This document shows, in pieces, positions 10,953 to 25,764 of a DNA stretch of 62,428 bases. The DNA lies in the IMG/VR virus record IMGVR_UViG_3300017903_003401, positions 1 to 62,428 of that record; one strand, written 5' to 3'. Source of the DNA: a virus. Its lineage: Duplodnaviria > Caudoviricetes. The notes beneath the pieces are model-generated. The model saw nothing but the letters and a program-made list of their open reading frames with translations. It was not told the origin of the DNA and made no database searches. The position numbers were made by a program, and so were the translations under genes. Each line of letters starts with the position of its first letter. Position 1 is the stretch's first letter.

Positions 10953-11153
10953 ATGTGGAGAGTATGGGCAAAGTCTCTCGGACAAAAGGACGGGAGAAGT
11001 GATAAAGAAGCTGATAAGATTGCAATTATCAGAACACTCATCATGTTTCAGTTGATTGTCACAAATGGATTCATCATTGCGGGTAATGTCAAGAACTTAT
11101 GGTATGCCAGTCCACAAACCTGCACAATATCCTTGACATCATCTGATAAATAA
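10953..11153 (+). CDS. Small membrane-associated hypothetical protein
   Basis: MWRVWAKSLG...IAIIRTLIMFQLIVTNGFIIAG hydrophobic segment. Confidence 0.65.
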   Translation: MWRVWAKSLGQKDGRSDKEADKIAIIRTLIMFQLIVTNGFIIAGNVKNLWYASPQTCTISLTSSDK

Positions 11154-11161
11154 CCTATATT
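11133..11161 (+). promoter_or_regulatory. sigma70-like early promoter
   Basis: TTGACA-17 nt-TATATT; AGGAG before the ATG at 11188. Confidence 0.7.
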
Positions 11162-11187
11162 ATTAAGGTAGTCAATCAGGAGTTCTC

Positions 11188-11373
11188 ATGTCTGCCACCT
11201 ATTCAACTTATTTTTCTAGGAAGACTCGTTATCGCGTTACCCTTGAGTTGGATGTAATGGAAGATTTCTCACCACATAACATTGATTGGGGTAAACTTCT
11301 TGATCTTGAAGGAAGTGAGAATGTAGAAGCCTATGTTGAGGATCTGTCTGTTCCCGATTCCTTCTACTCCTGA
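11188..11373 (+). CDS. Hypothetical protein
   Basis: RBS and promoter upstream. Confidence 0.7.
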   Translation: MSATYSTYFSRKTRYRVTLELDVMEDFSPHNIDWGKLLDLEGSENVEAYVEDLSVPDSFYS

Positions 11374-11380
11374 TGATGTT

Positions 11381-11411
11381 GAGGGTGATAAATAAAAAAT
11401 ATATCACCCTC
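11381..11411 (+). promoter_or_regulatory. Perfect 10-bp hairpin containing a late promoter (ATAAATA 11388-11394)
   Basis: GAGGGTGATA-11 nt-TATCACCCTC; the 3' arm ends 4 nt before the ATG at 11416. Confidence 0.7.
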
Positions 11412-11415
11412 TATT

Positions 11416-11607
11416 ATGGCTTTTTATCTCACCAAACCATCAGTGATTAATCCTGACATTACATTGTATTATGCAGGTGGTAAAAGATGGTCTGATCAAG
11501 TATCTGAAAAAGCGACATTTGCATCAAGAGAACCACTTGATGATAAGATTGCAAATGTTGATAATATGAGTGGTGGATTCAAAAACGCTACCGTAGTAGA
11601 AGAATGA
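11416..11607 (+). CDS. Hypothetical late protein
   Basis: Downstream of the late promoter; ATGA overlap with the next gene. Confidence 0.7.
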   Translation: MAFYLTKPSVINPDITLYYAGGKRWSDQVSEKATFASREPLDDKIANVDNMSGGFKNATVVEE

Positions 11608-12437
11608 AAACATTCAAACAGTTTGTTGAGCAGACAAATAACAAACAAAAGGATTTTGAAAAATCCCAGGATACTTCTACTGGAAATAGCGGCTCTGAAA
11701 CATTTGACTCAGAAAATGTATCTAACTCTGTAAAAGAAAGAAGAGCAAAGGAAGAAAGAAGGCAAAAGGCAGATGAAATTAGGGCAATTCTTGCCAGTGA
11801 AGTTTATGATCCTGAGATTCAAGGTAGATCTCAGATCACACAAACTGGTGAAGGTGGTAGAAAACAACCTAAAAGAGATACTGAGAGTAGAAGAAAGCCA
11901 GGACAATCACCAAGAATGAAGGCAGTTGGTGGTGGTAAAATGGTGCCTGTAGGTTCATATAAAGACAGAAAGGATATTGGTTCAACAAAGGCACGTTCTG
12001 AAAGAGAACAACAACCTGAAAAGGAGCGTGGTTCTACTGAAGTCAAACAATCTTATGCTGATAAGGTAAAGGCAGAAAGAAGGGCTGCAGCACAAGCAAG
12101 AATTGCAGCAAGAAAGTCAGGTCAACAGGTAAAATCAACAACCACATCTTCTAAAGATGCAGAAAAAAAAGCAACACAACTCCTGAAGACAAAGAAAGCA
12201 GAACCTAAGAAGACTGAACCTGCAAAGCCACGTCGTAGCTGGAAGACTGCAGAAGGTGGTGGAATGACAAGAAAGGAAAGAGACTCTGCACGTAATAAAG
12301 AAAGAGGCCAAAGTCAGGCAGAAATCAAAGCCCGTTTGAGAGCAGAATTTGAAAAGAATAATGGTAGAAGACCAAACAAAAAAGAAGCCATTCAACTAAC
12401 AGCTAAGGCTATCGCTGCAGCAAAGGCATCCTCCTGA
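11604..12437 (+). CDS. Basic low-complexity protein with a T4 capsid-targeting-like N-terminus (putative internal head protein)
   Basis: Begins MKTFKQFVE, resembling the T4 internal-protein leader; K/R/A/E-rich. Confidence 0.6.
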   Translation: MKTFKQFVEQTNNKQKDFEKSQDTSTGNSGSETFDSENVSNSVKERRAKEERRQKADEIRAILASEVYDPEIQGRSQITQTGEGGRKQPKRDTESRRKPGQSPRMKAVGGGKMVPVGSYKDRKDIGSTKARSEREQQPEKERGSTEVKQSYADKVKAERRAAAQARIAARKSGQQVKSTTTSSKDAEKKATQLLKTKKAEPKKTEPAKPRRSWKTAEGGGMTRKERDSARNKERGQSQAEIKARLRAEFEKNNGRRPNKKEAIQLTAKAIAAAKASS

Positions 12438-12500
12438 TAATTCACAGTCACAAAGTTACTCACCTTGAAATGTCCTCCATAGTACAGGACACACTACATT

Positions 12501-13382
12501 ATGACAAACACACACATCGAACATCCAGAAGATTGCATCCTTACCGGAGATTTGTCAGTCCTGAATCTTCTTTATGATAAAGCATTCATCTCTATGAAGA
12601 TGGATGGGATGTCATTGGTATGGGGTACTAACCCTGCCAATGGTAAGTTTTTTGTGTGTACAAAATCTGCATTCAATAAGAAAAAGATTCGTCTCTGTTA
12701 TACACAAGAGGACATCTTTACTCACTTTGGACATCAGATTGAAGTTGTAGATATTCTTTCAAGTTGTTTGACACATCTTCCTCGTACTGATAACATTTAT
12801 TGGGGAGATTGGCTTGGGTTTGGTAAGACTGATGTTTTCACACAAAACACTTTGACTTATGTTTTTCCAGATGCAATTGACCAACAACTTGTCATTGCGC
12901 CACATACACAAGTAAATGTTATGGGTGAGATGTATGAATCTATCTGTACTCCACTCACAGAAACATTTGAGGATACAGTGATGGTAAAATGGGTTCAACC
13001 ATCTGTTGACCGTGTTCCTCCGACACAAACTGCACCCATTATCAATAAGAAAGGTATCAAGTTTCTGACTAAAAAGGAAGCAACTAAGGCAAAAATTGCA
13101 ATCAATGCATTGATCAAGTCAGGAGAATACATTGATGATGTCACACTGACTGATATTCTTGGTTGTCAACATCTTGTCAATCTGTATCAGTATGTGATGG
13201 AAATCAAACTGGACATTATGGACAATTTGATTATCAATGATGCACCAATTGCATATCTTCCTAATGGAAAACAATGTAATGGTGAGGGTTATGTTTTTCA
13301 CTCTGAGACCTATGGTTCAGTCAAACTGGTGAATCGTACTGAGTTTGCCTACGCAAACTTCCATAATGGTTATGGCACTTGA
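12501..13382 (+). CDS. Nucleotidyltransferase/ligase-like protein (DUF6267-like)
   Basis: HIEHPED N-terminus; KMDG (motif I KxDG), EGYV (motif IV) and VKLVNR (motif V) of the covalent nucleotidyltransferase superfamily. Confidence 0.6.
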   Translation: MTNTHIEHPEDCILTGDLSVLNLLYDKAFISMKMDGMSLVWGTNPANGKFFVCTKSAFNKKKIRLCYTQEDIFTHFGHQIEVVDILSSCLTHLPRTDNIYWGDWLGFGKTDVFTQNTLTYVFPDAIDQQLVIAPHTQVNVMGEMYESICTPLTETFEDTVMVKWVQPSVDRVPPTQTAPIINKKGIKFLTKKEATKAKIAINALIKSGEYIDDVTLTDILGCQHLVNLYQYVMEIKLDIMDNLIINDAPIAYLPNGKQCNGEGYVFHSETYGSVKLVNRTEFAYANFHNGYGT

Positions 13383-13406
13383 CATGTAATTTACTTCTGG
13401 TATAAT
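13379..13406 (+). promoter_or_regulatory. sigma70-like promoter
   Basis: TTGACA-16 nt-TATAAT with TG extended -10. Confidence 0.75.
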
Positions 13407-13456
13407 GTCCCTATATTGAGCATCCTAGATGCCTCAATGATCTTTACTAAATTCAA

Positions 13457-14512
13457 ATGAAACAAGTACCCATTCATCATAATACGAAAATTGAAGATTT
13501 AATGCTCAATGCTGATAGAGCTCCAAATTATTTGGGATTAGAATTTGTACGTTTTAAGTTAGTTACACCCACAAATGTTGAAAAAACCACAAATCATCCT
13601 AGAATGGTTGAGAAAAAGAGTGGAAATTGTGACGCAATTTCTGCCTCATTAAAAAAAGGATGGACTGTCGGAAGTTTTCCACCTAGTTTTGTTTTAGAAC
13701 CTGATAAAACAAGATTATTGAATGGCAGACATACTCTTGATGCATTTATCCAAAATCAATATCATGTTATGCCTGCTGCAATATATGTTAGAGTTGAATC
13801 AGGTGACAAGGATTTTGATGCATTGTCTGACGAATGTCAAGATATGATCAATGGTACGAGGGCAAATGTCGATGGAACATGTAATACTGTAAAAGATGAT
13901 TTTCAATATGTTGCAAATCAAGTTATATTGACAGATAAATTAGATAGAAATGCCGATGTAATTGATCAAATTCTTGATTGGTGTAATATTCATGAGAGAT
14001 ATAATTATTCTGGGACTATTACTGAAATTAGGAACAAGGTACTCGACTTAAAAGGTAAAACTTCTCAAAAAGTTTTTAACACTACAAAAGAAGAAAGTAC
14101 ATATTGGATGAGTAACAATAGAAATTTTGGTGAAAATAATTATTCAGAAGAAGGATATAGACTTAGATCCACTTCTATTAAAAAAGAAAGTAATCTTAGA
14201 GATTATGCACATAGGATAATTGATAGTGCTTATAATGCAGTAGAAAAAGGTTGCATTGAAAGACGTATTATTTGGTCTACTTCTACTAACCCAGATCAAA
14301 TTAAACTTGATAGGCAAAAACTTGTTGAAACGGTATATGATTGTCACAATATCCCAAGAGATTATTTTAATAACTTTATTAAATCAGAATTAGAGAAAAT
14401 TCCCTTTTTTGAGAAATTTTCACTTCCTAAATGTGAATTGGTCAATCTCCCTTTAGAATTGTGGGCTGGTCCCCAAATTGATGGTGAGACTGAGGCTATC
14501 AGACTTATTTGA
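13457..14512 (+). CDS. Hypothetical protein with a ParB/Srx-like N-terminal motif
   Basis: ISASLKKGW...PPSFV...LLNGRHTLDAF resembles the ParB I.DG.HR..A box. Confidence 0.5.
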   Translation: MKQVPIHHNTKIEDLMLNADRAPNYLGLEFVRFKLVTPTNVEKTTNHPRMVEKKSGNCDAISASLKKGWTVGSFPPSFVLEPDKTRLLNGRHTLDAFIQNQYHVMPAAIYVRVESGDKDFDALSDECQDMINGTRANVDGTCNTVKDDFQYVANQVILTDKLDRNADVIDQILDWCNIHERYNYSGTITEIRNKVLDLKGKTSQKVFNTTKEESTYWMSNNRNFGENNYSEEGYRLRSTSIKKESNLRDYAHRIIDSAYNAVEKGCIERRIIWSTSTNPDQIKLDRQKLVETVYDCHNIPRDYFNNFIKSELEKIPFFEKFSLPKCELVNLPLELWAGPQIDGETEAIRLI

Positions 14513-14568
14513 TTTTGACAGAGTTACTCACCTCCAAATGTCCACTGTAGTATAGACACCACCATTTG

Positions 14569-15747
14569 ATGATTCAACTTCGTCCTCATCAGGAAGAAGC
14601 AGTGACTGCACTTCGTAATAACACCATCGGTCAGGTAATTGTACCTACTGGTGGAGGAAAGACCTTGATTGCTATCATGGATGCAGTCAAACGGTTTGAG
14701 TCAAAAACTCCTCGTACTATTGTTGTTGTCGCTCCACGTATTCTGTTGGCAGAGCAACTGTCTTCAGAGTATCTGGAGCACATTAGCAATGCAAATGTTC
14801 TTCACGTTCACAGTGGAGAGACAAAGCATTTCAAGACAACAAAGTCTGATCGTATCAAACTGTTTGTTGATATGTGTCAAACTATGAGTGAGCATGTAAT
14901 TATCTTCACCACATATCACTCTCTTCATCGTGTTCAGGAGTCTGGTATTGCCGTAGACACAATCTACTTTGATGAGGCACATAACTCCTGTCAGAATAAC
15001 TTCTTCGGGCCCACTGATTACTTCAGTAAGAAGGCTGACCGTTGTTTCTACTTTACTGCAACGAGGAAGACATCAGTCACCATGCGTAAACATGGTATGA
15101 ATGAGGTAGAAACCTATGGACAGGTGATTGCACGTGTCTCCGCACCAGAACTGGTGGAGAATGGTTACATCTTGCCTCCTAAAGTGAAGGTGATTGAGAT
15201 GGATAAGATTGACAAAAAGTCACTCACTCCTCATCTTGAGGGTAACAATGTTCTCGCATCTATTGATCAGATCAATCTTAAAAAGATTCTGGTTTGTGTG
15301 AAGACTACCCGCCAACTTCAGAATCTGTTCATGACAGATTTTGCTGACCAGTTGATTGAACGTGGTTATTCTTACCTCTACATTACATCAAAGACTGGTG
15401 CAATCATCGATGGTAAGAAGGTGTCGCGTGAGGAGTTCTTCAATGTGTTGAACACTTGGGGTAAAGATCCTGACAAAAAGTTTGTCTGTCTCCACAGAAG
15501 TATCCTGTCTGAGGGTATCAATGTGAGTGAACTTGAGGGTGTGGTTTTTCTTCGTAACATGGACACAATCGAGATGCTCCAGACTGTTGGACGTGTGATT
15601 CGTGTGGGTTCAAAGAGTAAAACCTATGGTATGTTGTGTGTACCTGTCTACAACAACGTTGGAGTATCTACCGAGAGAACATTGCAACGTTGTGTTGACA
15701 TTGTGTTTGAAAAGGGTGAGATGTGTGATTCTGTAGTGAGGCGTTGA
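14569..15747 (+). CDS. Superfamily 2 (ResIII/DEAD-like) helicase
   Basis: LRPHQ Q-motif, PTGGGKT Walker A, DEAH, TAT, LSEGINV, QTVGRVIR. Confidence 0.9.
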   Translation: MIQLRPHQEEAVTALRNNTIGQVIVPTGGGKTLIAIMDAVKRFESKTPRTIVVVAPRILLAEQLSSEYLEHISNANVLHVHSGETKHFKTTKSDRIKLFVDMCQTMSEHVIIFTTYHSLHRVQESGIAVDTIYFDEAHNSCQNNFFGPTDYFSKKADRCFYFTATRKTSVTMRKHGMNEVETYGQVIARVSAPELVENGYILPPKVKVIEMDKIDKKSLTPHLEGNNVLASIDQINLKKILVCVKTTRQLQNLFMTDFADQLIERGYSYLYITSKTGAIIDGKKVSREEFFNVLNTWGKDPDKKFVCLHRSILSEGINVSELEGVVFLRNMDTIEMLQTVGRVIRVGSKSKTYGMLCVPVYNNVGVSTERTLQRCVDIVFEKGEMCDSVVRR

Positions 15748-15992
15748 TGTTTACTAATTCACATATTCTTGATGCTCAACCAGGCCCACTACCTATCGTG
15801 GTGGGTGATGGTTACCTTGCTGCAATTCCTGTATTAGGTTCAACAACTAAACTCATGGTGATTCACAATGGAAACCCGGTGAAGGTGTGTCGAAACCACA
15901 AATCTGCAATGAATTTAATCAACAAACTTAAGAAGACTCATAGTTACTCACCTCGAAATGTCCCCAATAGTGTAGACGTGACCAACTTCTAA
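15744..15992 (+). CDS. Hypothetical protein; C-terminus reads through repeat copy 3
   Basis: Overlaps the helicase stop codon. Confidence 0.6.
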   Translation: MMFTNSHILDAQPGPLPIVVGDGYLAAIPVLGSTTKLMVIHNGNPVKVCRNHKSAMNLINKLKKTHSYSPRNVPNSVDVTNF

Positions 15993-16059
15993 AATGTTCT
16001 CTATGACCCTATAAATGGTCTCTAAGGTCACTTAAATCACTGCTAAGTATCAAACCATT

Positions 16060-16266
16060 ATGAACATTGATTCTCAACTCTTGACAATTATTGAGTCTCT
16101 TGAAGACAGTGTGAGAGTATGTAATAAAGTGAAAGACGATCCTAAAAAAGGTTATCCATATGTTACTGGCTATTCTCTTTCAACAATGGATTATGCCATT
16201 GGGGAGTTAAAGAATGTCGTCGAACAATATCGTTCTATTATTCAAGAGGAGGAGTGTATGAGTTAG
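16060..16266 (+). CDS. Hypothetical protein, paralogue of 19139-19354
   Basis: Shared VCN...DP..GY.Y.TGYS.S.M pattern. Confidence 0.7.
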   Translation: MNIDSQLLTIIESLEDSVRVCNKVKDDPKKGYPYVTGYSLSTMDYAIGELKNVVEQYRSIIQEEECMS

Positions 16267-16312
16267 AATTACTCACCTCTAAATGTCCACTGTAATGTAT
16301 CAATCAAACATC

Positions 16313-16522
16313 ATGAACAATTCTTCTCAAATCCTCCGTGAACTTCAAGAACTTCGCAAGACTTGGCGTGTTCAGAACTATTCTTACACTCAATCACAAC
16401 AATCTCGTTATGATGAATTGATGATGCTTCGTCGTGCATTTATCAACAAGTGGGAGGAAGATGGTTTGGTATGGAAAGGCCCTTCTAATGTAGGTAAGGC
16501 AACAACTGAAACCGAGAGTTGA
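16313..16522 (+). CDS. Hypothetical protein (MNNSSQILRELQ...)
   Basis: ATG 14 nt after the TAATGT box of repeat copy 4; the ORF-track start lies inside the repeat. Confidence 0.7.
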   Translation: MNNSSQILRELQELRKTWRVQNYSYTQSQQSRYDELMMLRRAFINKWEEDGLVWKGPSNVGKATTETES

Positions 16523-16547
16523 CATAAACTCTCTTTTTCCATACAAT
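16519..16547 (+). promoter_or_regulatory. sigma70-like promoter
   Basis: TTGACA-17 nt-TACAAT. Confidence 0.7.
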
Positions 16548-16568
16548 ACATTCAATTGCAGATTTATT

Positions 16569-16892
16569 ATGAAGTTTGATCCTGAACTCAGTGAAGTTTT
16601 TACTACAGAGGGAGTAACTTTTGAATTCAATCATGCACGAACCGAATACTTATCTAATGATATTCTAGACCAGTATAATACTCAAATGAATAATTTGGGT
16701 AAGATATTCAAGAAGGCAAAGAAAAAGAATAAGAGTAATAAAGCTGAGGACATCATTGCACTACATTCTGAATGGAATGTCAATGATAATAATGAAACAA
16801 TGTATCTTGTATTCAATGATGATGATAATTCCTTTACCCATGTGACTACTGAGAATTTGTTTTACTCAGAAACTAATGAGGTACAAGAATGA
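16569..16892 (+). CDS. Hypothetical protein
   Basis: ATG ORF after the promoter. Confidence 0.7.
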   Translation: MKFDPELSEVFTTEGVTFEFNHARTEYLSNDILDQYNTQMNNLGKIFKKAKKKNKSNKAEDIIALHSEWNVNDNNETMYLVFNDDDNSFTHVTTENLFYSETNEVQE

Positions 16893-17032
16893 TTTACAAT
16901 ATGGCATCAGACATTGATACTCGTAAGATTGTGTGGATTTGTCAACAATATCAGACCAGACACAGTAGTGTTGAAGTTGCGACCATCAATCGTACAAGTT
17001 CAAAGTTACTCACCTCCAAATGTCCTCTATAG
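16889..17032 (+). CDS. Small hypothetical protein (MIYNMASDIDTRKIVWIC...), stop codon inside repeat copy 5
   Basis: Read manually; ATGA overlap with the previous gene. Confidence 0.45.
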   Translation: MIYNMASDIDTRKIVWICQQYQTRHSSVEVATINRTSSKLLTSKCPL

Positions 17033-17048
17033 TGTAAGAAGCAATTCT

Positions 17049-17384
17049 ATGATCACCCAAACCAAACCACAATTCTTGACTGAATGTCTGATTGAGACTC
17101 TCAACAATGAATGGAAAGTCAATTCGATTGAATCGGGTCACAATACTTATACTCAACTAGAGTGTGAAATTGGTCGAAAATACATCAAAGTGTGGAGTTA
17201 TCTTGTCAGTGATGGTGAGAGACTTCGTGGTCGTAGTTGTTGGATGTTTGTTGATAAGAACTCTGGAGAATGTTACAAACCTGCATCATACAAAGCTCCT
17301 GCAAAAGGTGTTCGTTATCTCATAACACAACTGACAGATAATCCACATATCTGTGACGCATACGGTAGTTTTCTTTACTTATGA
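17049..17384 (+). CDS. Hypothetical phage protein (GRKYIKV...FVDK..G..YKPASYKAPAKGVRY)
   Basis: ATG 13 nt after the TAGTGT box of repeat copy 5; the TTG start at 16914 is unlikely. Confidence 0.75.
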   Translation: MITQTKPQFLTECLIETLNNEWKVNSIESGHNTYTQLECEIGRKYIKVWSYLVSDGERLRGRSCWMFVDKNSGECYKPASYKAPAKGVRYLITQLTDNPHICDAYGSFLYL

Positions 17385-17408
17385 TGCATACTTTACGATT
17401 CTTTTATT

Positions 17409-17666
17409 ATGTCTTCTGTGGTGTATTCTTTACCACAATTATCAAAATTCTCTCAAACTGACATGGCACTTTCTGCACAATGTGTATCAAGAATGGCTGA
17501 TGCACTCAAAGAAGAAATCATTGAACACATCTACATGAGTGAAAAGTATTCAGAGGTAATGCATGACCTTGTAGCTGATGCATTAGACTCTAAACTTGGT
17601 GAAATTGATGAAGATCTGTTTTTCGAGTTAGGTATGTGTATTATGGACAGAATTGAACTCAAATGA
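17409..17666 (+). CDS. Hypothetical acidic protein (start may be the later MALSAQ)
   Basis: Co-oriented ORF. Confidence 0.65.
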   Translation: MSSVVYSLPQLSKFSQTDMALSAQCVSRMADALKEEIIEHIYMSEKYSEVMHDLVADALDSKLGEIDEDLFFELGMCIMDRIELK

Positions 17667-18019
17667 AACTAAAGAATCTCGTTCCGGTGTTATCAACTCT
17701 CGTATGTTGTCTTGGTAACCCATCACAAGTTGAGGCAAGAACTCCTGCAATTATTAATGGAACATGCGACTACATCTCAGGGTATATTATTGGTCGAAGA
17801 AGCGTCAATTGCGTTGTGATTGATGAGGGTGATGGTGGTTACACAACTAACATCATCGACGCACAAGTTCATGTCAATGTAAAGACAAACGAAATGTATG
17901 TCAATGGTAAGGAATGTGATCCACCGATTCTCGCAGTAGTCAACAATGAAAAACCACATGTTTACAGTATATGTGGAGGGACTGATGATGATTTTACAGT
18001 CGTAATTCCCACCCGATAA
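17663..18019 (+). CDS. Putative exported protein
   Basis: Signal-peptide-like N-terminus ending VEA; paired Cys. Confidence 0.65.
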   Translation: MKLKNLVPVLSTLVCCLGNPSQVEARTPAIINGTCDYISGYIIGRRSVNCVVIDEGDGGYTTNIIDAQVHVNVKTNEMYVNGKECDPPILAVVNNEKPHVYSICGGTDDDFTVVIPTR

Positions 18020-18068
18020 AATTACTCACCTCGAAATGTCCCCTATAGTGTAACCACGCTTCAAATAA

Positions 18069-18224
18069 ATGCAAGAAACTAAATTCCTTAGCAATTTCTG
18101 GGACAATGTGTTAAAGCAAGAAGAATGGAATGATGATCTGAAACGGTGGGAAAATACTCATCCTGAGTATAAACCATTCAAGGAAGATTCTGATTCACAA
18201 CGTCAACAAAATCTCTCAAACTGA
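18069..18224 (+). CDS. Small hypothetical protein (MQETKFLSNFWD..., 51 aa), not in the ORF track
   Basis: ATG 17 nt after the TAGTGT box of repeat copy 6; TGATG coupling to the next gene. Confidence 0.65.
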   Translation: MQETKFLSNFWDNVLKQEEWNDDLKRWENTHPEYKPFKEDSDSQRQQNLSN

Positions 18225-18505
18225 TGAACTACACTCTCGGACAACTTCAAGATCGTATCACTAAGATGATCGAACTGCAAGGTGAAGATGCACATTGTGC
18301 GGCATGGATTTACACTAAGGAGGATGTTCCTGCAGTCGTGACAAAAGAGGGAGATGAGTTATTTCCTTGTGACGAACATCCTGAACTTGCTGAAAGAATT
18401 TTCAACGATGTTGGCAACAATGATTACATCTATCAGGTGATTCAAGAATGTGTAGATGAATTTGCGGAAGAACAGTTTATGTTACTTCAGCAAGAATTGG
18501 TCTGA
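18224..18505 (+). CDS. Hypothetical protein
   Basis: Ends just before repeat copy 7. Confidence 0.75.
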   Translation: MNYTLGQLQDRITKMIELQGEDAHCAAWIYTKEDVPAVVTKEGDELFPCDEHPELAERIFNDVGNNDYIYQVIQECVDEFAEEQFMLLQQELV

Positions 18506-18557
18506 CACAAAGTTACTCACCTCGAAATGTCCCCTATAGTGTAATCGTTCAACCCTG

Positions 18558-18719
18558 ATGACTTATCCACTTGGCATCGACAATCCTATCAAGGTCAAAG
18601 GTGTTATGGGCTCACATAAGTGGGCATTGTATTGGAAAGATGACATGACAAAAATTGCAACATTTCCGAATGAATTTGTGGCAATGGAGTGTCGTCGTTC
18701 AATTATTGAGTCTCTTTGA
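18558..18719 (+). CDS. Small hypothetical protein (MTYPLGIDNPIKVKG..., 53 aa), not in the ORF track
   Basis: ATG 15 nt after the TAGTGT box of repeat copy 7. Confidence 0.65.
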   Translation: MTYPLGIDNPIKVKGVMGSHKWALYWKDDMTKIATFPNEFVAMECRRSIIESL

Positions 18720-18907
18720 TGATTACTAGAACTGCAACTTATCAAATTGAGGTAACAACTGACGAGGGTTCATTGTCAGTTATGAGGGTTATGCCCACTC
18801 GACCCAAAACACCTAAGGGTATCAAATCCCAAAACAATAAGTTAGAAAAGTGGGCCATGAATCAGTATCCTAATTGGACTGAAATCAACATCAAACTTAT
18901 GGACTGA
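18716..18907 (+). CDS. Hypothetical protein
   Basis: Coupled ORF. Confidence 0.65.
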   Translation: MMITRTATYQIEVTTDEGSLSVMRVMPTRPKTPKGIKSQNNKLEKWAMNQYPNWTEINIKLMD

Positions 18908-19074
18908 TGATTACATCAAAGAAAAAAATGATTGACATTATGTCAAAGTGTGAGGGTGCTGATACTCTCACAAGAGAGGAAAAGTTTCAAGTATTCTGCC
19001 GAGTATGTGATAACATGCTCAAAGAAGGTAGAATGACAAAGGTAACACACAAACGATTTACAGAGATTTGGTGA
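18907..19074 (+). CDS. Small hypothetical protein (MITSKKKMIDIM..., 55 aa), not in the ORF track
   Basis: TGATG coupling; read manually. Confidence 0.6.
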   Translation: MITSKKKMIDIMSKCEGADTLTREEKFQVFCRVCDNMLKEGRMTKVTHKRFTEIW

Positions 19075-19138
19075 TGTTCACCTAGAAAGTTGTTTTATAC
19101 AACAAAAGAGCCTAATTTACTTCAAACAATTCTACATT

Positions 19139-19354
19139 ATGAAACTCGAACTCGAACTTCAACTTCAAATCCAAAGACTCAGTGAGGCAATCACTGTGTG
19201 TAATGAATCTCCGCAAGATCCATCGCAAGGTTATGCCTATGCAACTGGATATTCAAGGTCTGCGATGAATGGTGTGATGGAAGATCTTATCAAAGTTCTG
19301 GAAGGATTAGAGAGTGACAAAGTTACTCACCTCGAAATGTCCACTATAGTGTAA
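19139..19354 (+). CDS. Hypothetical protein, paralogue of 16060-16266; reads through repeat copy 8
   Basis: GYAYATGYSRSAM motif. Confidence 0.65.
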   Translation: MKLELELQLQIQRLSEAITVCNESPQDPSQGYAYATGYSRSAMNGVMEDLIKVLEGLESDKVTHLEMSTIV

Positions 19355-19366
19355 GAAACGATCATC

Positions 19367-19528
19367 ATGACACTCACTGAAAAGAATCGACAACAATACG
19401 ATCTCCGCCAGGAGATGTATAAGGCTCAACAGAAAGTTGAGTTCTGCAAACAACGTATTGCACAACTTCAAAGAGAATATGAAATGCAATTTGAGCCACC
19501 AATGTTTGATCAAATGTTCGGAGGTTGA
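19367..19528 (+). CDS. Small coiled-coil hypothetical protein (MTLTEKNRQQY..., 53 aa), not in the ORF track
   Basis: ATG 14 nt after the TAGTGT box of repeat copy 8. Confidence 0.65.
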   Translation: MTLTEKNRQQYDLRQEMYKAQQKVEFCKQRIAQLQREYEMQFEPPMFDQMFGG

Positions 19529-19732
19529 ATGAAAAAAATCACTTACGACATTCCTTACACTATGATGATCAATTCTGACCTTGAGACTCTCAACAAAAGA
19601 GAACAATTAATGGAGGACATTGATTGTATTATTGAATCAAACTTCGGCGAAGTTGAGTATAAGGACGATGTGATTCGTCAATTATGTGACGCCGTCTGTC
19701 GTAATTTTCCAGTACAAAATACCTCACCTTGA
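19529..19732 (+). CDS. Hypothetical protein; stop codon inside repeat copy 9
   Basis: GGAGG upstream. Confidence 0.65.
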   Translation: MKKITYDIPYTMMINSDLETLNKREQLMEDIDCIIESNFGEVEYKDDVIRQLCDAVCRNFPVQNTSP

Positions 19733-19768
19733 AATGTCCATTATAGTGTAACCCTTTGATTCTTCCTT

Positions 19769-20077
19769 ATGTTTTTCACTTTTGCTCAATCCAATCCTGA
19801 GTTCTCAGGTGCATATATTGCAATTGCAGATGATGACATCTCTACAGTCAAGTTGTTTGACTGTAAGACTGAAATGTATGGATGGATTAAAGATATGTTG
19901 GAGATCAAAGGATATGGTAAAGTGACATCAACTGTGATGGGGAATGATGGATCTGTTGATAAGAGATTAAATCATAAGTCCGCAATTTATGAGATTGATG
20001 AGGATATGTGTTACAAGTGGGGTCCAGTGGAGCCTGAAATTTCCACCAACATTCGTGTCACTTATCAGGAGATTTGA
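19769..20077 (+). CDS. Hypothetical protein
   Basis: ATG 19 nt after the TAGTGT box of repeat copy 9. Confidence 0.7.
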   Translation: MFFTFAQSNPEFSGAYIAIADDDISTVKLFDCKTEMYGWIKDMLEIKGYGKVTSTVMGNDGSVDKRLNHKSAIYEIDEDMCYKWGPVEPEISTNIRVTYQEI

Positions 20078-20409
20078 TCATGCCCAGATTTGAAGCACAG
20101 ATTTGGCTGCCGAATGAACATCCTTATCAGGTTGAAACTTCTGCAGCAAATATTTTTGCAGCAAAAGAAATCATCGCTCGTAGAGAAGGTGTTGATGAAA
20201 AGTATGTCAATCGAATATTTCTCATCAATGAGAGTGAAAGTGAATCAAGTTCACAAAATGAATCAGGAGGAAGTATCGATTCTGGTGGACTTATAGGGCT
20301 TATATTAATCATATGTGGTGGAATGATTTTAATCAACTTCTGGCCAATTATTCTTGGATTGAGTATTCTTGGATTGATCATTTGGATTATCAAGGTATTC
20401 AATGAATAA
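20074..20409 (+). CDS. Membrane protein with two C-terminal hydrophobic helices
   Basis: GLIGLILIICGGMILINFWPIILGLSILGLIIWII. Confidence 0.7.
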   Translation: MIMPRFEAQIWLPNEHPYQVETSAANIFAAKEIIARREGVDEKYVNRIFLINESESESSSQNESGGSIDSGGLIGLILIICGGMILINFWPIILGLSILGLIIWIIKVFNE

Positions 20410-20611
20410 GTTAAATTCAGGAGATGAAGTTGAATTTATCGGTGCAATTCCACAACAAGTGATGTGGTCTAGTACAGATTATCCATCGCATTTAATCATT
20501 GGAAGACGATACATTGTGAAGGAAGTGTTTACCTATCCATGGTATACCAAGGTCACAATTCTCAACAAATCAGGTACATTCAATTCAATTCATTTCAAGA
20601 AAGTAGGCTGA
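20402..20611 (+). CDS. Hypothetical protein
   Basis: Coupled ORF ending before repeat copy 10. Confidence 0.7.
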   Translation: MNKLNSGDEVEFIGAIPQQVMWSSTDYPSHLIIGRRYIVKEVFTYPWYTKVTILNKSGTFNSIHFKKVG

Positions 20612-20676
20612 AAATTGACTCTCTACAAAGTTACTCACCTTGAAATGTCCACTCTAGTGTAAGACGCTTCCACATC

Positions 20677-21006
20677 ATGCGAAAGATCGAAAGTCAAATG
20701 ATCAATGCCATTCAGAACGGTATTGATTGGAAATCTGCAAACACTGAGGTAGTTTCTCAACAAGATGGGGTCTCTTATGTGTATCTCCACGGTAACAAGA
20801 TTGCAGAAGTTGGTGATGATTTCCTGAGACTTTATGACGGTGGTTATCAATCAAACACCACGAAGTCTCGTCTGAATGCCATACTTGAAGCATGTGGTGA
20901 AGTTGGTGATAAAGTGTTCGCAAAGAATTTTGAATGGTTTGTTACAATGAACACTGTTCAAGGTTTATCAACAGTTCCATTCTTTAATTCGATGCGACTT
21001 GGATGA
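20677..21006 (+). CDS. Hypothetical phage protein (MRKIESQM...TTKSRLNA)
   Basis: ATG 16 nt after the TAGTGT box of repeat copy 10. Confidence 0.75.
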   Translation: MRKIESQMINAIQNGIDWKSANTEVVSQQDGVSYVYLHGNKIAEVGDDFLRLYDGGYQSNTTKSRLNAILEACGEVGDKVFAKNFEWFVTMNTVQGLSTVPFFNSMRLG

Positions 21007-21054
21007 TTATCCTCATCGTTTATCTTTTATTCATTACACTTGTTATTCTGACCA

Positions 21055-21255
21055 ATGATGATCACAACCGAACGCCTTGACCAACTGAAAGATGATTATG
21101 CATGGATGATTGTTGATGATATGGATTTGAAGACTTTATGTCAAATCGCTGCAAATGCAATCGCGGATAACATCAAGGATTATGATTATGATGATTTGAG
21201 AGAAGAAATCATTGATTGTTATGGTGAAGAAACCTGGACAGATATGGAATCATAA
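21055..21255 (+). CDS. Hypothetical acidic protein
   Basis: Stop codon abuts repeat copy 11. Confidence 0.7.
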   Translation: MMITTERLDQLKDDYAWMIVDDMDLKTLCQIAANAIADNIKDYDYDDLREEIIDCYGEETWTDMES

Positions 21256-21303
21256 AATACCTCACCTTCAAATGTCCTCTATAGTGTCACCACGCAATCA
21301 AAC

Positions 21304-21501
21304 ATGATGAAAAAGTTTTATCAACTGTCACACATTGAATTTGATTTTGATGGTGAGGATCTTTCTGAAGAAGTCAAGGATTGTATCACTTATGAGGCAA
21401 AAGAGACTCTTTGGGATTCACCAACTGAGGAGCAATTAGTTGATATGATCGCAGATAATGTTGGCTATTGTGTTAAGTCTTTATCTTACGATTTGGTCTA
21501 A
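21304..21501 (+). CDS. Hypothetical acidic protein (single-gene cassette between copies 11 and 12)
   Basis: Fills the inter-repeat space. Confidence 0.75.
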   Translation: MMKKFYQLSHIEFDFDGEDLSEEVKDCITYEAKETLWDSPTEEQLVDMIADNVGYCVKSLSYDLV

Positions 21502-21555
21502 CAGAATCACTCACCTTCAAATGTCCACTCTAGTGTCACCACGCAATCAAACATT

Positions 21556-21807
21556 ATGATCACTCTTTCCTTCGACATTCAAGCTCCAAATTATCTTCAG
21601 CTCATTGATGAGCTCATCACTGAATCAAACATCAATCGTAAGGATCTGCTCAATGTTAAAGTTATCCTTCGGCATGATCATCCTTATGATGAGTTCCAAT
21701 TGACTGTTGCTAATCAACAATCAGCTATTCAGTTGGTATCAACGTATGATGGTATCAAACCCACATGTGTGACACCTGAAGACATCGAAACTCATCAAGT
21801 TGTCTGA
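21556..21807 (+). CDS. Hypothetical protein (single-gene cassette)
   Basis: Lies between copy 12 and the half copy at 21812. Confidence 0.7.
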   Translation: MITLSFDIQAPNYLQLIDELITESNINRKDLLNVKVILRHDHPYDEFQLTVANQQSAIQLVSTYDGIKPTCVTPEDIETHQVV

Positions 21808-21898
21808 GTACAAAATACCTCACCTCCACTGAATTATTCTTGACAGAATAACTCACCTTCAAATGTCCTCTATAGTGTACCCAATCAATTCAACCATC

Positions 21899-22144
21899 AT
21901 GACTTCCACTTACCAAACTCAAACCACTGACACCACTTATAACGGTTGGACGAATTATGAGACCTGGAATGTAGCTCTCTGGATTGGTAATGATGAGGGT
22001 CTTTATCACATGGCTCGTCGTTGTTATTCTTATCAGGATTTTCTTGATCGTTATGATGATGATTCCGAAACACCTGATGGCGTAAAGTTCAATGATTCAA
22101 ACATTAATCATGTTGAGATGGATGAAATGTTTGATGAACTTTGA
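21899..22144 (+). CDS. Hypothetical phage protein (YNGWTNYETWNVALW)
   Basis: ATG 20 nt after the TAGTGT box of repeat copy 13. Confidence 0.75.
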   Translation: MTSTYQTQTTDTTYNGWTNYETWNVALWIGNDEGLYHMARRCYSYQDFLDRYDDDSETPDGVKFNDSNINHVEMDEMFDEL

Positions 22145-22199
22145 TGTATTATAACTCAAAAACACGTCCATTCTATCTTTTTGCATTCTTTATTGAATT

Positions 22200-22463
22200 A
22201 TGACTCTTTCTCACTTTGATACAAATCTTTCCAAAATTAAACCAAAGTTTAGAACAACAGGCAACATCTCAGGTAACTTCGGAAAGGCTAAAGTGAAAGC
22301 CGGTAGTTCACTCAATGAGATCGGAGTTTCAACAAAAGAAACAATTCACGTCACTAAACGTAGTGATTACATTGACAGAATGATTTCTCTGTTTTATAAT
22401 ACTGAAGACACAAAGATGAGACATTTCGCTTATACTGAACTTCATCGATTACATGCCATCTGA
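22200..22463 (+). CDS. Hypothetical protein
   Basis: ATG ORF. Confidence 0.7.
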   Translation: MTLSHFDTNLSKIKPKFRTTGNISGNFGKAKVKAGSSLNEIGVSTKETIHVTKRSDYIDRMISLFYNTEDTKMRHFAYTELHRLHAI

Positions 22464-22555
22464 TTCTTCAAATTGACCCCCAAATTTCTTCTAGTATGAT
22501 TCTCACATTCAGTCACCCAACTGTCATTCTCGAAGAAAAGATTTACAACACTCAA

Positions 22556-22798
22556 ATGAAAACAGAAACACTCACTTTCCGTGAAGCACTTGTCATTCTT
22601 GAAGATCAATATGATTCCACTTATCGCGGTGTTAAAACTGTACGCGAAATGTGTTCAGATCTGACAGATGCGATGTATTGGGATAAGGAAGATCCTAACA
22701 CAATCTATCATCAATTCGAGACTCAAGAAGGTCCGAATCGTATTGTTAAAGATGATCAAATCATCGCTCTTGCTCTTCACTATGTTCCTACAAAATGA
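22556..22798 (+). CDS. Hypothetical protein, paralogue of 23585-23794
   Basis: Internal ATG preferred because TTGACC-16 nt-TATGAT (22473-22500) covers the first ATG. Confidence 0.65.
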   Translation: MKTETLTFREALVILEDQYDSTYRGVKTVREMCSDLTDAMYWDKEDPNTIYHQFETQEGPNRIVKDDQIIALALHYVPTK

Positions 22799-22807
22799 TC
22801 TTTACCA

Positions 22808-23164
22808 ATGCAACAAGTTTATTTGCTCAAAGATCATGACATGAACTTGTTCAAGATTGGTCTGCGTAGTATTGGCTCACCTCGTTTTCTGAAAGAGTCA
22901 TCATTGATCAAAAATGGTTATGCTACTGATATTCAACAGATCACATGTAGCGAACCAGTATCTAAAGAAGTTGCAAAGTCATTAGAACAGACTCTGCACC
23001 ATATGTTCTCCGATAAGAGAACTGATTACCCCGCAACTACAGTGACAACAACTCTCCCAAATGGTAACACTAAGTCTATTGAACGTTATCCCAACGGCCA
23101 CACCGAATGGTTTAAATTAAACCCCGAAGACATCACTATCATTTCTGAAATCCTGGCCAAATGA
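22808..23164 (+). CDS. GIY-YIG-related T5orf172/MUG113-like domain protein
   Basis: VYLLKD...FKIG...LEQTLHHMF...R...TEWFKL. Confidence 0.65.
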   Translation: MQQVYLLKDHDMNLFKIGLRSIGSPRFLKESSLIKNGYATDIQQITCSEPVSKEVAKSLEQTLHHMFSDKRTDYPATTVTTTLPNGNTKSIERYPNGHTEWFKLNPEDITIISEILAK

Positions 23165-23552
23165 CCAACACAATCAATTGTAAGTATGAGGTCTATCTGT
23201 AAACAAGAGGAGTCAATTATCGACCCCAAAAAACACCATAAATAACATGTTTTGCATTAAAAAACGTTTATAAATGTATTAATAAATGTATTTGAGTGTT
23301 TTATAGTTTTCCACAATATGTGTGGAAAAGTAGAGTTAATGTGTGGAAAAGTATCACAAATACCTTGTAAATGTCTGATTATATCCTCACAAATACCTTG
23401 TAAAGCCTTCGAGTTATTGTGATCTAAGGCCGTAGTCTATCAGGCTTTTCTGATACTGTCAACCCCCAATCCGTGTCAAATCAGTGTTACTTATGAGTCA
23501 CCAATCTCACAAATCTCAGAAACACATAAGAAACACATATAAGGGCCCCTAC
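23165..23552. other. Non-coding region with an AT-rich tract, three TTTTCCACA (DnaA-box) sites and direct repeats; candidate origin
   Basis: TTTTCCACA at 23307-23315 (+), 23321-23329 (-) and 23342-23350 (-); repeats of 11, 15 and 18 bp. Confidence 0.5.
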
Positions 23553-23584
23553 AAAGTTACTCACCTCGAAATGTCCACTATGGT

Positions 23585-23794
23585 ATGAATAAAACACAAG
23601 CTCTCTCAGTTCTCTCCAATCACTACAACGCCGAGTATCTTGGCACTTATGTGATTCCTGCATGTTCAGGTAATCTCATCGAAGATATTATGAATGAGGA
23701 CATCATTGGCGAAACATTTCACCAATGGAACACAACACCAAAAATGATGGTGAATGACAATGATGTAATTGCCCTTGCAAAACATTATGTTTGA
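23585..23794 (+). CDS. Hypothetical protein, paralogue of 22556-22798
   Basis: TFHQW...MVNDNDVIALAKHYV versus IYHQF...IVKDDQIIALALHYV. Confidence 0.65.
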   Translation: MNKTQALSVLSNHYNAEYLGTYVIPACSGNLIEDIMNEDIIGETFHQWNTTPKMMVNDNDVIALAKHYV

Positions 23795-23859
23795 TCTCTG
23801 AGTTTATAACACTCTGAGACACGGCTTAAGCCACTCTAGAACAGTCCTTTTCTCCTTTG

Positions 23860-23979
23860 ATGATGAATTCCTACCAACAACTGCTAAAGTCCATTGAAGA
23901 GGTCAAATCTACTGGTAAGAAAGTTACAGTCACTGTGTTGCCTTCTCAAGTGAACCGCAAACGTAAATCACTGCTCTGA
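23860..23979 (+). CDS. Small basic hypothetical protein (39 aa), not in the ORF track
   Basis: MMNSYQQLLKSIEEVKSTGKKVTVTVLPSQVNRKRKSLL, read manually. Confidence 0.5.
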   Translation: MMNSYQQLLKSIEEVKSTGKKVTVTVLPSQVNRKRKSLL

Positions 23980-24279
23980 GACAGTCATTCAGACCCGTTG
24001 AATAAGCACTAAAAAAACGGGGCTTACTCCGCATCTTTTTTAATTCTGTTGTCTGCTATTTGTCTCTCCTATGTGTGTTTAACTGTTGTGTTTGTGAGTG
24101 ATAGTCTGACCCTTATTCCTTCACCTGGTAAACAGTCTGTTAGGGGGTTCAGTGTTAGAAACTCACAAGACAGTCAGTGACACTAACGGAACAAATAACA
24201 GGTTTATTTATAACACTTACTGTATGACCTGAACATGTCACTAAACTGTTCAATGTTCACCTCTATCTCACTCAAACAT

Positions 24280-24429
24280 ATGTCCCGCGAAATCATGATC
24301 TCTCTGCTCCGTAGGGGTAACACTGGAGCACAAATCCTTGAGATTCTTGATAGTATTGTAGCTGACACTGATAACACTGAACCAGCTACATTCAACAGTG
24401 AGCCAACACTCCACGAGCTTGAGTTCTGA
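24280..24429 (+). CDS. Small hypothetical protein (MSREIMISLLRRGNTGAQILEILD...)
   Basis: Internal ATG of ORF 24235-24429; co-oriented with its neighbours. Confidence 0.6.
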   Translation: MSREIMISLLRRGNTGAQILEILDSIVADTDNTEPATFNSEPTLHELEF

Positions 24430-24430
24430 T

Positions 24431-24506
24431 CACTTAGTGAGGCCACAGTGATTGACACTTAGTGGCCTCACAGTTCTTGACACTTAGTGGGGCTAAATGT
24501 TATAAT
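24431..24506 (+). promoter_or_regulatory. sigma70-like promoter with three CACTTAGTG operator-like sites and a hairpin
   Basis: TTGACA(24477)-18 nt-TATAAT(24501), with TG extended -10; CACTTAGTG at 24431, 24456 and 24481; inverted repeat TGAGGCCAC/GTGGCCTCA. Confidence 0.65.
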
Positions 24507-24752
24507 TACAGTATTATCGAAATCGACAGTATTTCGGGGGTTTTGTGATGTCCGCGCGGCGGGCAAAGCGGTTATAAGGTTATAAGGTATTTGGATAATA
24601 AGGTATTCGAGAATATGCCCCCCTTAAAGAAAATGCGGCTTTCCTAACCTACAAAGGTGACAATCCGGCCTTATATTATTGCGTCTTAAAAAAATCCCGT
24701 GGGAAAAAAATTTCTCTCCGAGGGCCGATATATAAAAAAACTCCGTGATAAA

Positions 24753-24920
24753 ATGAGTGTATCTAAGGTTTATCGAATATTTTTAAAGGGGAAGTGTGTA
24801 TTAGAGGATAATCGTGAGGAAGTATTCCGAGAGAATTGGAAGACATTGAATAATCTGGTCGGCCTTGTAAGGACTGACTATGTGTCTGAGGATCTCTCAT
24901 ATGAGATAGTATCAGAGTAA
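24753..24920 (+). CDS. Hypothetical protein (MSVSKVYRIFLKG...)
   Basis: Internal ATG of ORF 24699-24920. Confidence 0.6.
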   Translation: MSVSKVYRIFLKGKCVLEDNREEVFRENWKTLNNLVGLVRTDYVSEDLSYEIVSE

Positions 24921-24949
24921 TTGACAGTGTTATACATACTTGGTATAAT
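24921..24949 (+). promoter_or_regulatory. Consensus sigma70 promoter
   Basis: TTGACA-17 nt-TATAAT, with TG extended -10. Confidence 0.85.
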
Positions 24950-24978
24950 AAAGATTGAAATGGAGTGATTTCAAATTC

Positions 24979-25764
24979 ATGGCAAAAGGATTTACAGTGA
25001 AGGCAGCAACACCGAAGACTGCTAAGAAAGAGAAAAAGGAAGAGTGGGATTATCAAGCAATTAAGGAAAGGATGAGAGGGAAGGCAATTGTATTTTGTCT
25101 TCCAGGGCGTGGATGTAGTTATGCATTTCTGAAAAATTTTGTACAATTATGTTTTGATCTTGTACAAAACCAGATGAGTATTCAGATTAGTCAAGATTAC
25201 TCAAGCATGGTGAATTTCGCACGTTGTAAGTGTCTCGGCGCAAATGTATTGAGAGGGCCTGACCAAATTCCATGGGACGGGAAGCTCAAGTATGATTATC
25301 AGTTATGGATTGATAGTGACATTATTTTCAGCACTGAGAAATTCTGGCAGCTTTGTGACATGGCCGTAAACTCTGAGGGCGAGGAGAAGGAGATTGTTGC
25401 TGGATGGTATTCAACTGAGGATGGGCGCACAACCTCTGTTGCTCATTGGTTAGAGGAGGATGACTTCAGGAATAATGGTGGAGTGATGAATCATGAGATG
25501 GTTGATGGTATTAGTAAGCGTAAGAAGCCTTTTACTGTTGACTATACAGGATTTGGATGGGTGATGATTCAACGTGGTGTCTTTGAGAATGAGAAGATGA
25601 AGTATCCATGGTTTGCACCAAAGATGCAAGTTTTTGAAAGTGGTGCTGTTCAAGATATGTGTGGAGAGGATGTATCATTCTGTTTGGATGCTATTGAAGC
25701 CGGATATGATATCTGGTGTGATCCACGAATTCGAGTAGGACATGAAAAGACAAGGGTCATCTGA
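24979..25764 (+). CDS. GT-A-fold glycosyltransferase-like protein
   Basis: LWIDSD (DxD), TGFGWVMI, GEDVSFC, VGHEK motifs; GGAG upstream of the ATG at 24979. Confidence 0.7.
   Translation: MAKGFTVKAATPKTAKKEKKEEWDYQAIKERMRGKAIVFCLPGRGCSYAFLKNFVQLCFDLVQNQMSIQISQDYSSMVNFARCKCLGANVLRGPDQIPWDGKLKYDYQLWIDSDIIFSTEKFWQLCDMAVNSEGEEKEIVAGWYSTEDGRTTSVAHWLEEDDFRNNGGVMNHEMVDGISKRKKPFTVDYTGFGWVMIQRGVFENEKMKYPWFAPKMQVFESGAVQDMCGEDVSFCLDAIEAGYDIWCDPRIRVGHEKTRVI

Follow-up and report, generated by a model that had tools for sequence, protein, structure and literature searches.

What function can be assigned to a short element that recurs 14 times, always on the same strand, within about 11 kilobases (kb) of the viral record IMGVR_UViG_3300017903_003401? 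The window analysed here is that entire record, a contig of 62,428 bases, all of which was searched. Its Kyano_Gp96, gp25, gp6, tail-fibre, gp8, gp15 and neck-protein genes identify the source as a T4-like cyanophage of the Kyanoviridae, and the array takes up the block of small genes that separates the tail fibres from gp25/gp6. An earlier interpretation of this DNA, made without database searches (hereafter, the sequence-only reading), had regarded the copies as a dedicated promoter class and/or as recombination sites, each heading a self-expressing, exchangeable cassette. Judging from sequence comparisons with related phages, we think it likely that the copies are early-region promoters of a T4-like cyanophage that double as seams between shuffled gene groups.

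The pattern CTCACCTNNAAATGTCC (that is, CTCACCT-NN-AAATGTCC) has 14 exact matches between positions 12459 and 23560, all on the plus strand. They begin 7 nucleotides (nt) after the starts given in the sequence-only reading, whose count of same-strand copies is confirmed. Only 0.13 matches would be expected by chance, and 0 of 100 shuffles gave as many. The sole additional match at up to two mismatches is located at 26479 on the minus strand, inside an open reading frame (ORF) and with no TATAGT behind it; we take it as a chance match. A 46-column weight matrix derived from the copies found no further site of at least 18 bits across the 62,428-base contig, so the element is confined to the array of about 11 kb, as previously proposed. 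Conservation reaches upstream (ACA-R-A-R-TTA) and downstream (GTAA) of the core, and the element is therefore about 41 nt long rather than 35, consisting of ACA-R-A-R-TTA, CTCACCT, Y-N, AAATGTCC, N-C, TATAGT and GTAA. Counted from the start of CTCACCT, positions 1–7 and 10–17 are invariant in 14 of 14 copies, whereas three columns are free: position 8 (C in 8 copies, T in 6), position 9 (G in 8, C in 5, T in 1) and position 18 (A in 7, C in 3, T in 4). Within the TATAGT box, the second position is occupied by A (10 copies), C (2) or G (2), the T at the third position and the last T are present in all 14 copies, and the second A and the G in 13 each. Because position 18 varies, the exact 10-nt palindrome CACTATAGTG, said earlier to be a frequent feature, is found in only 1 of the 14 copies. 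An ATG opening an ORF of 51–392 amino acids stands 13–20 nt past the box in 12 of the 14 copies, in agreement with the original count. The invariant columns are interleaved with the free ones at positions 8, 9 and 18, and copying from one copy to another could not skip single columns, which suggests that selection acts on each copy.

The 14 elements head some 30 ORFs in groups of 1–4, and for most of these ORFs the only PHROG or Pfam matches are to families without a known function. The copies are given here with the position of the first C of CTCACCT after the semicolon. Copy 1 (12450..12490; 12459) heads a DUF6267 gene (12501-13382, PF19782), followed by ORF 13457-14512, and copy 2 (14518..14558; 14527) heads a DEAD/ResIII helicase gene on the plus strand (14569-15747, assigned by helicase family matches) and ORF 15744-15992. 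Copy 3 (15938..15978; 15947) overlaps the 3′ end of that last ORF, and the next long ORF behind it is 16060-16266. Copy 4 (16263..16303; 16272) precedes ORFs 16313-16522 and 16569-16892; copy 5 (17000..17040; 17009) a DUF7717 ORF (17049-17384) and then 17409-17666 and 17663-18019; copy 6 (18016..18056; 18025) ORFs 18069-18224 and 18224-18505; and copy 7 (18507..18547; 18516) ORFs 18558-18719, 18716-18907, 18907-19074 and 19139-19354. The best match to the consensus is copy 8 (19317..19357; 19326), which heads ORFs 19367-19528 and 19529-19732. Behind copy 9 (19714..19754; 19723) are ORFs 19769-20077, 20074-20409 and 20402-20611, and behind copy 10 (20625..20665; 20634) the Kyano_Gp96 ORF (20677-21006) and a DUF7326 ORF (21055-21255). 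Copies 11 (21252..21292; 21261) and 12 (21501..21541; 21510) each head a single ORF, 21304-21501 and 21556-21807, respectively, and copy 13 (21843..21883; 21852) heads a DUF7249 ORF (21899-22144) and then 22200-22463, 22496-22798 and 22808-23164. Copy 14 (23551..23591; 23560) lies after a 390-nt gene-free stretch, has the weaker box TATGGT and is associated with ORF 23585-23794. On the plus strand at 24644..24661, upstream of ORF 24699-24920, the sequence CTAACCT-AC-AAAGGTGAC, whose −10-like box is further away, is a degenerate relative of the element; both RB11-B and S-B05 carry a similar odd copy at the corresponding end of their arrays. In copies 11 and 12 (21252-21580), the element is accompanied by a nearly identical 16-nt leader, caccacgcaatcaaac, and the ORFs behind are unrelated, as expected from duplication of a promoter with its leader or from an ORF swap behind the leader.

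The element belongs to a family. A BLAST search with one copy against 50,697 phage records matched S-B05, S-B43, RN05-S, RB11-B and SynMITS9220M01, besides short chance matches in Vibrio and Klebsiella phages, and 5 complete cultured genomes carry the motif. The first four are the closest cultured relatives of the contig, Synechococcus phages with about 80% nucleotide identity to it in places. In RB11-B, 13 copies (with at most two mismatches) lie within 12.6 kb of the 210-kb genome, all on one strand; S-B05 has 15, and in both genomes, which were searched whole, the copies are confined to this region. The array in the S-B05 record MK799832 (our loci L095 and L097) is divided between about 156 kb (plus strand) and 30.8–40.4 kb (minus strand), with the split inside the ORF 15744 homologue, at an annotated 102-bp repeat where a separate 40.5-kb S-B05 record also ends; the division is probably an assembly feature rather than biology and was not used. 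The exact pattern is present in 86 IMG/VR stretches. For comparison, we assembled 80 IMG/VR loci around helicase homologues and scored them with the matrix at a cut-off of at least 15 bits. This gave 414 sites in 72 of the 80 loci, all 414 on the helicase (gene) strand, of which 293 are unique, and the first ATG is 12–20 nt past the box at 225 of these 293. The architecture shared by the family is TTA, [CTC or GTA]ACC, TC-N, AAA, a variable 5-mer ending in CC, N-C, TATAGT and N-TAA-N-CA. Loci with more distant helicases carry variants, such as AAAGTGGACC in L118 and AAAGTGTCC in L148, and others, such as L127, have a different, Syn9-like element.

The element includes a −10 hexamer close to TATAAT, and its never-varying bases fill the stretch from −35 to −13. 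In a scan with the sigma-70 consensus, none of the 14 copies was among the best sites. Ordinary TTGACA promoters are nevertheless interspersed, as the sequence-only reading had it. Two perfect sites lie within the array on the plus strand, at 13379..13406 (12 of 12 positions, spacer of 16, with TG, ahead of ORF 13457-14512) and at 22372..22400 (12 of 12 positions, upstream of ORF 22496-22798), and two more just beyond it, at 24477 and 24921. By analogy, these four TTGACA-N16-18-TATAAT sites would belong to a host-like (middle) promoter class. The possibility that the element itself is a host promoter class was considered and rejected: among 185,579 prokaryote genomes (species), the shared core had 1 match, on a Pelagibacteraceae contig, which lacks the upstream half, is near the chance number and is probably fortuitous. 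In this form, then, the composite core does not represent a promoter class of the host. Its absence from cells, combined with an orientation that never departs from the gene strand and a constant short spacing to the ATG, points to a phage-specific promoter class. A small RNA complementary to the element tail was also sought and discarded, as GTGGTTAC occurs 5 times against 1.7 expected and never in a gene-free stretch that could be linked to an RNA.

The first box of the element exists in two states. Among the 293 unique sites, 147 have CTCACC and 145 GT(A/T)ACC, and apart from one point mutant there are no intermediate combinations. The class is pure in 57 of the 59 loci with at least three sites. 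Of the two impure loci, L101 contains the point mutant, and L113, the only contig in which both classes occur, has a C-class helicase promoter at 804 with a C-type upstream flank and then, behind the helicase, five G-class sites at 2777-5656; it may have arisen by natural recombination between the classes or by chimeric assembly. For the orthologous helicase promoter, the C class is found in 35 loci and the G class in 21, and in 50 of 51 cases its class is that of the other sites on the contig. Helicase similarity does not predict the class, since L146, with 90% identity, is G-class, and L114 (C) and L122 (G) have a common upstream flank and helicase but a different box. Class changes number 5 on the helicase tree and 1–6 on the trees of 19 other genes. 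Box 2 is looser, with uniformity in some contigs (12 of 13 sites of L158 have TGACC, and all 14 of the window have TGTCC) and mixtures in others. Uniformity of the box within each genome, set against its variation among genomes between which genes are exchanged, suggests that whatever reads it has a matching specificity; such a reader would be phage-coded or specific to a host lineage. The alternatives are that most exchange takes place between genomes of one class or that a crossover within the element leaves the resident box in place. The dedicated promoter class of the sequence-only reading thus fits the anatomy, the co-orientation of all related sites and the genome-uniform box, while transcription start sites are predicted from the sequence pattern.

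Candidates for this reader were examined. Two families with a single class change were rejected, w10947 because it has a hydrophobic core and resembles a small membrane protein, and w8335 because it has no class-specific residues. The DUF6267 protein, encoded by the gene that opens the first cassette, was rejected as an element-specific reader because Syn9, P-TIM40 and S-SKS1 have it too. No DNA-binding family was found among the window proteins by Pfam and PHROG matching. As a tentative possibility, which we rate as rather doubtful, the upstream half of the element may be read by a specificity factor supplied by the phage, either delivered with the virion or made immediately, existing in at least two forms that co-evolve with the CTCACC and GT(A/T)ACC boxes. 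This option is left open by the uniformity of the box within contigs despite gene exchange between classes (1–6 label changes per family), by the interleaved invariant and free columns and by the absence of the composite motif from cellular genomes. If this is correct, this T4-like cyanophage lineage would control its early transcription by a switchable system of its own, functionally equivalent to sigma appropriation in T4 but directed at early genes.

Do the copies also mark the places where gene groups are exchanged? The region 7001-27000 of the window was compared by blastn with 86 related loci, and blocks of at least 100 nt inside the array were retained (n=342). For 170 of these, the start falls in the interval −15..+5 nt around an element, compared with 8.8 for uniformly distributed starts, and only 18 blocks run through an element. 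In L107, the window units of copies 5, 4, 2 and 1 stand in the order 5-4-2-1, and the blocks start at the element in both genomes and end at the end of the last gene. Similarly, the homologue of ORF 20402 in RB11-B is placed after the gp96/DUF7326 pair, which it precedes in the window. An adjacency test, restricted to window gene pairs with both homologues present in a locus, showed broken adjacency in 86 of 192 locus-by-junction comparisons across elements versus 31 of 161 without an element, and each of the 10 informative element junctions is broken somewhere. In the relatives, gene groups that begin exactly at an element have been moved, lost and gained, which supports the exchangeable cassettes of the sequence-only reading. 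For a population check, we used Logan contigs from 4 runs belonging to 3 studies. Joints in these contigs that go back or skip several kb were considered as circles or deletions but left unused, because their sides of 24–38 letters lie by near-identical copies and are ambiguous at a likeness of 88.

The anatomy of the copies, their conservation, their restriction to a single part of the genome and the permuted units of relatives are direct observations, while initiation at the box, its early timing and what reads the element are what we infer. The copies would be understood as follows. A sigma-70-type −10 box, TATAGT, would set the start of transcription about 7 nt downstream, giving leaders of about 7–14 nt without a Shine–Dalgarno sequence. 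A conserved, lineage-specific 30-nt module (AAAGTTA / CTCACC / TC-N / AAATGTCC) would replace the −35 hexamer, and the element would probably be read by the host RNA polymerase together with an additional factor. Through the 14-fold repetition, each group of 1–4 genes would have its own start signal. Early timing is suggested by the position of the cluster and by the early element reported in Doron et al. 2016, discussed below. T4-like phages recombine readily, and direct repeats of 35–45 nt provide homology, so the copies would become seams as a by-product, at which units of a promoter plus its genes are moved, lost or gained, presumably by the homologous recombination of the phage itself.

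Several observations weigh against these conclusions. The copies at 15947 and 23560 have no nearby start codon, the next long ORF lying 86 nt past the box in the former and the ATG overlapping the box in the latter. At the −35 distance, the element has GTTACT or TTACTC, which match only 2–3 of the 6 consensus positions, so that, as the sequence-only reading had stated, there is no −35 TTGACA and invariant bases occupy the spacer position. No RNA run was listed as matching 14000-23900, and both the start site and the early timing are deductions. The motif was sought in Syn9, where a match to a characterised early motif would have lowered its novelty, and it occurs there at chance level (6 matches at three mismatches versus 3 for a reversed control). 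Syn9, whose early starts have been mapped, lacks the window sequence and has a differently built element, and it is therefore by position that a function is transferred from one to the other. The seams are not exclusive, because 6 of 11 informative element-free junctions are also broken in some relative; the breakpoint comparison thus supports reordering that starts at the element without limiting it to such sites. The Logan contigs show gene-sized gaps relative to the window at 13369-14519, 18233-18499, 19528-19730, 20409-20623 and 21356-21513, with the right end within −17..+7 of an element and the left end at or in a gene, which implies that genes also come and go singly, in a slot just ahead of an element. 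The comparison loci are inter-related, some being near-duplicates or overlapping contigs, and the counts given above overstate the number of independent events. Finally, trees of 20 flanking gene families yielded no convincing candidate for the reader when compared with the box class.

The bases conserved between the −35 position and the −10 box might also, or mainly, form an operator at which an early phage protein shuts the class off at the switch to middle genes. The invariant AAATGTCC is located where a spacer normally drifts and where repressors commonly bind, boxes that are uniform within a genome and different between lineages fit a phage-coded DNA-binding partner, and other repeated operator-like sites adjoin the array (23318-23404 and 24422-24493). 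However, no DNA-binding domain was found among the window proteins, no flanking gene family convincingly tracks the box class, and the box is not palindromic and lacks dyad symmetry; we consider an operator unlikely. Much less can be said for the idea that the conserved bases function at the RNA level, in the processing or translation of read-through transcripts, with no start signal at all. Its fixed distance to start codons would suit such a role. Terminator-like sites are not enriched (11 found versus 8.7 in shuffles) and none adjoins a copy, which makes read-through between cassettes likely and counts in favour of an RNA-level function. Nevertheless, a consensus fold of the 14 copies with their flanks contains 0 predicted pairs, an Rfam scan of the window gave no matches, and the most conserved bases, among them a textbook −10 box, are found 25–55 nt before the ATG, so that this explanation seems highly improbable. 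The 3′ half of the element, C-N-CTATAG-T, seems to resemble the core of T7-type promoters, with the variable box where such promoters carry their specificity bases. If a single-subunit (T7-type) or other non-host RNA polymerase encoded by the phage used the element as its promoter, this would account for the compact size (about 25–40 nt), the very strong conservation and the presence, a few bases before CTATAG, of boxes specific to a lineage. PF00940 (RNA_pol) was detected in 0 of the 5 complete element-carrying genomes, although this counts for little given that the control genomes were silent too, and no such gene appears in the examined parts of the annotation tables of those genomes. A review describes the Kyanoviridae as users of the host polymerase. 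We give a T7-type promoter only a very slight chance.

The sequence-only reading had also compared the array with integrons, and the copies could in principle be dedicated, attC-like sites of site-specific recombination that capture and excise cassettes. Like an integron, the array is a one-directional series of short cassettes parted by a repeated site; the repeats bound gene groups, the units are permuted and blocks of homology start at the repeat. Yet no integrase or recombinase family was detected in the 69 window ORFs scanned against Pfam, and the copies do not form folded attC-like sites; with neither integrase nor folded site, the comparison fails. Each cassette has its own promoter-like box instead of one shared promoter, and whereas attC forms the 3′ end of promoterless cassettes, the window element stands at the 5′ end and includes a −10 box. 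Natural gene insertions and deletions have one end at the element and the other at a gene end, and the tight spacing to the ATG points to an expression signal. Dedicated recombination sites are, in our opinion, scarcely credible.

The probable promoter class, with seams as its by-product, can be compared with the early elements of other T4-like cyanophages. Doron et al. 2016 reportedly found that in Syn9 and P-TIM40 a novel element drives early genes and host-like promoters drive middle genes, and that the elements are said to be conserved among T4-like cyanophages. That element and ours are alike in their place on the map, a helicase-containing cluster of small genes flanked by the tail fibres and gp25/gp6, and the order of fibres, small genes with the helicase and gp25/gp6 is common to Syn9, P-TIM40 and SynMITS9220M01. 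The elements of Syn9 and P-TIM40 and that of the window are all repeated, non-host-like and on the gene strand, with a −10-like box shortly before start codons. By our own reading of the early regions of Syn9, P-TIM40 and S-SKS1, rather than from a published logo, their element is longer, with GTGACA, about 7–10 nt, (A/T)AGTGTC(A/C)C and further conserved boxes, and its −10 box lies 25–40 nt further on, unlike the compact window element. A TGTCCAC-like word is present in both types at different distances from the −10 box, which may be chance. The compact element would therefore represent a second type with a Doron-like position and presumed role. In the main texts searched, we found no printed sequence of a cyanophage early element and no description of the window motif.

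In the sequence-only reading, the array was likened to the mobile promoter cassettes of T4-type coliphages. These units, called PeSLs (promoter-early stem-loops), are described for RB49/phi1, T4/PST and KVP40/nt-1 as a near-consensus TTGACA-N17-TATAAT promoter with a terminator stem-loop (Arbiol et al. 2010, PMC2839356; Comeau et al. 2014, PMC4122927). The same papers present them as repeated early-promoter units in a variable region of T4-type genomes, ahead of small genes of unknown function, with gene groups that differ between relatives at the units and with the phage recombination machinery, and no dedicated recombinase, presumed to be responsible (PMC2839356; PMC4122927). The window element is similarly clustered in a variable region ahead of small genes that differ between relatives, but it has a long lineage-specific module in place of the −35 box and no stem-loop, so two defining parts of a PeSL are missing. 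The likeness is apt for behaviour, as the element behaves like PeSLs, that is, as repeated promoter units where modules shuffle, but it is not a PeSL in the strict sense. The middle promoters of T4, which combine a MotA box with a sigma-70 remodelled by AsiA (PMC5780444), share with the window element a −10 box and a phage-specific upstream box that replaces the −35 hexamer, and are the nearest mechanistic model for a factor-dependent class. The window box is different and longer, however, and stands ahead of presumed early rather than middle genes. As stated in a review, cyanomyoviruses lack motA and asiA, and T4-like cyanophages lack the Alt and Mod proteins of T4.

A repeated promoter that is also a recombination seam is an already known kind of arrangement, and the gain is incremental in this respect. 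The window adds a compact and very clean second architecture of early element, which bears on how T4-like cyanophages start their infection programme, and this architecture is common in uncultured marine phage contigs, as the 72 of 80 helicase loci and the 86 IMG/VR stretches with the exact pattern indicate. Because five cultured phages carry the motif, it is accessible to laboratory experiments. The main question raised is what reads the element, and the two-state, genome-uniform box offers a concrete handle for finding the reader. The same repeats explain the reshuffling of accessory early genes in abundant ocean viruses.

Regarding the remaining content of the contig, phage tail-fibre repeats extend over 38-7781, gp25 is encoded at 27020-27421 and gp6 at 27422-29380, and a giant fibre-like protein, gp8, the neck protein, gp15 and a small terminase are also present; a scan of the window for tRNA genes gave no matches. 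An element-free block of small genes (7.9–12.4 kb) precedes the array; it contains a CP12-domain ORF (9178-9408), a cyanophage auxiliary metabolic gene, and sigma-70-like sites with 11 of 12 positions matched at 8895 and 11133. The cargo of the array, put forward in the sequence-only reading as a candidate library for host takeover or anti-defence and expected to consist of small genes, does so mostly, but it includes the helicase of 393 amino acids, the DUF6267 protein of 293 and an ORF of 351 (13457-14512). The last has no family match and is located between two cassettes with its own perfect sigma-70 promoter and no element of its own. Almost no related locus carries it and one Logan contig skips it; it looks like a recent, moron-like insert. 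ORF 22808-23164, the last of the 13th cassette, shows weak matches to T5orf172 and MUG113 (GIY-YIG-like) and may be a small gene of the homing-endonuclease type; HNH or homing endonucleases are found elsewhere in the array of RB11-B, S-B05, S-B43 and RN05-S.

Two intergenic stretches near the end of the array contain other repeats. In the 390-nt gene-free stretch before copy 14 (23165-23550), an 18-nt word, TCACAAATACCTTGTAAA, occurs twice without a mismatch at a distance of 33 nt, as does a 15-nt word, ATGTGTGGAAAAGTA, at a distance of 21 nt. Their inverted partners stand at 23303-23315 and 24580-24612; from their sequence, these repeats are candidate protein-binding sites. At 24422-24506, three tandem CACTTAGTG-GGCC-like words with a 25-nt period lead into the perfect TTGACA-N18-TATAAT promoter at 24477-24506, which is followed by about 190 nt free of ORFs, beginning with a small hairpin and T-run (24520-24548). 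This arrangement looks like a candidate operator array on a strong promoter, and its words recall the GTGACA and TAGTG boxes of the Syn9 and P-TIM40 early elements.

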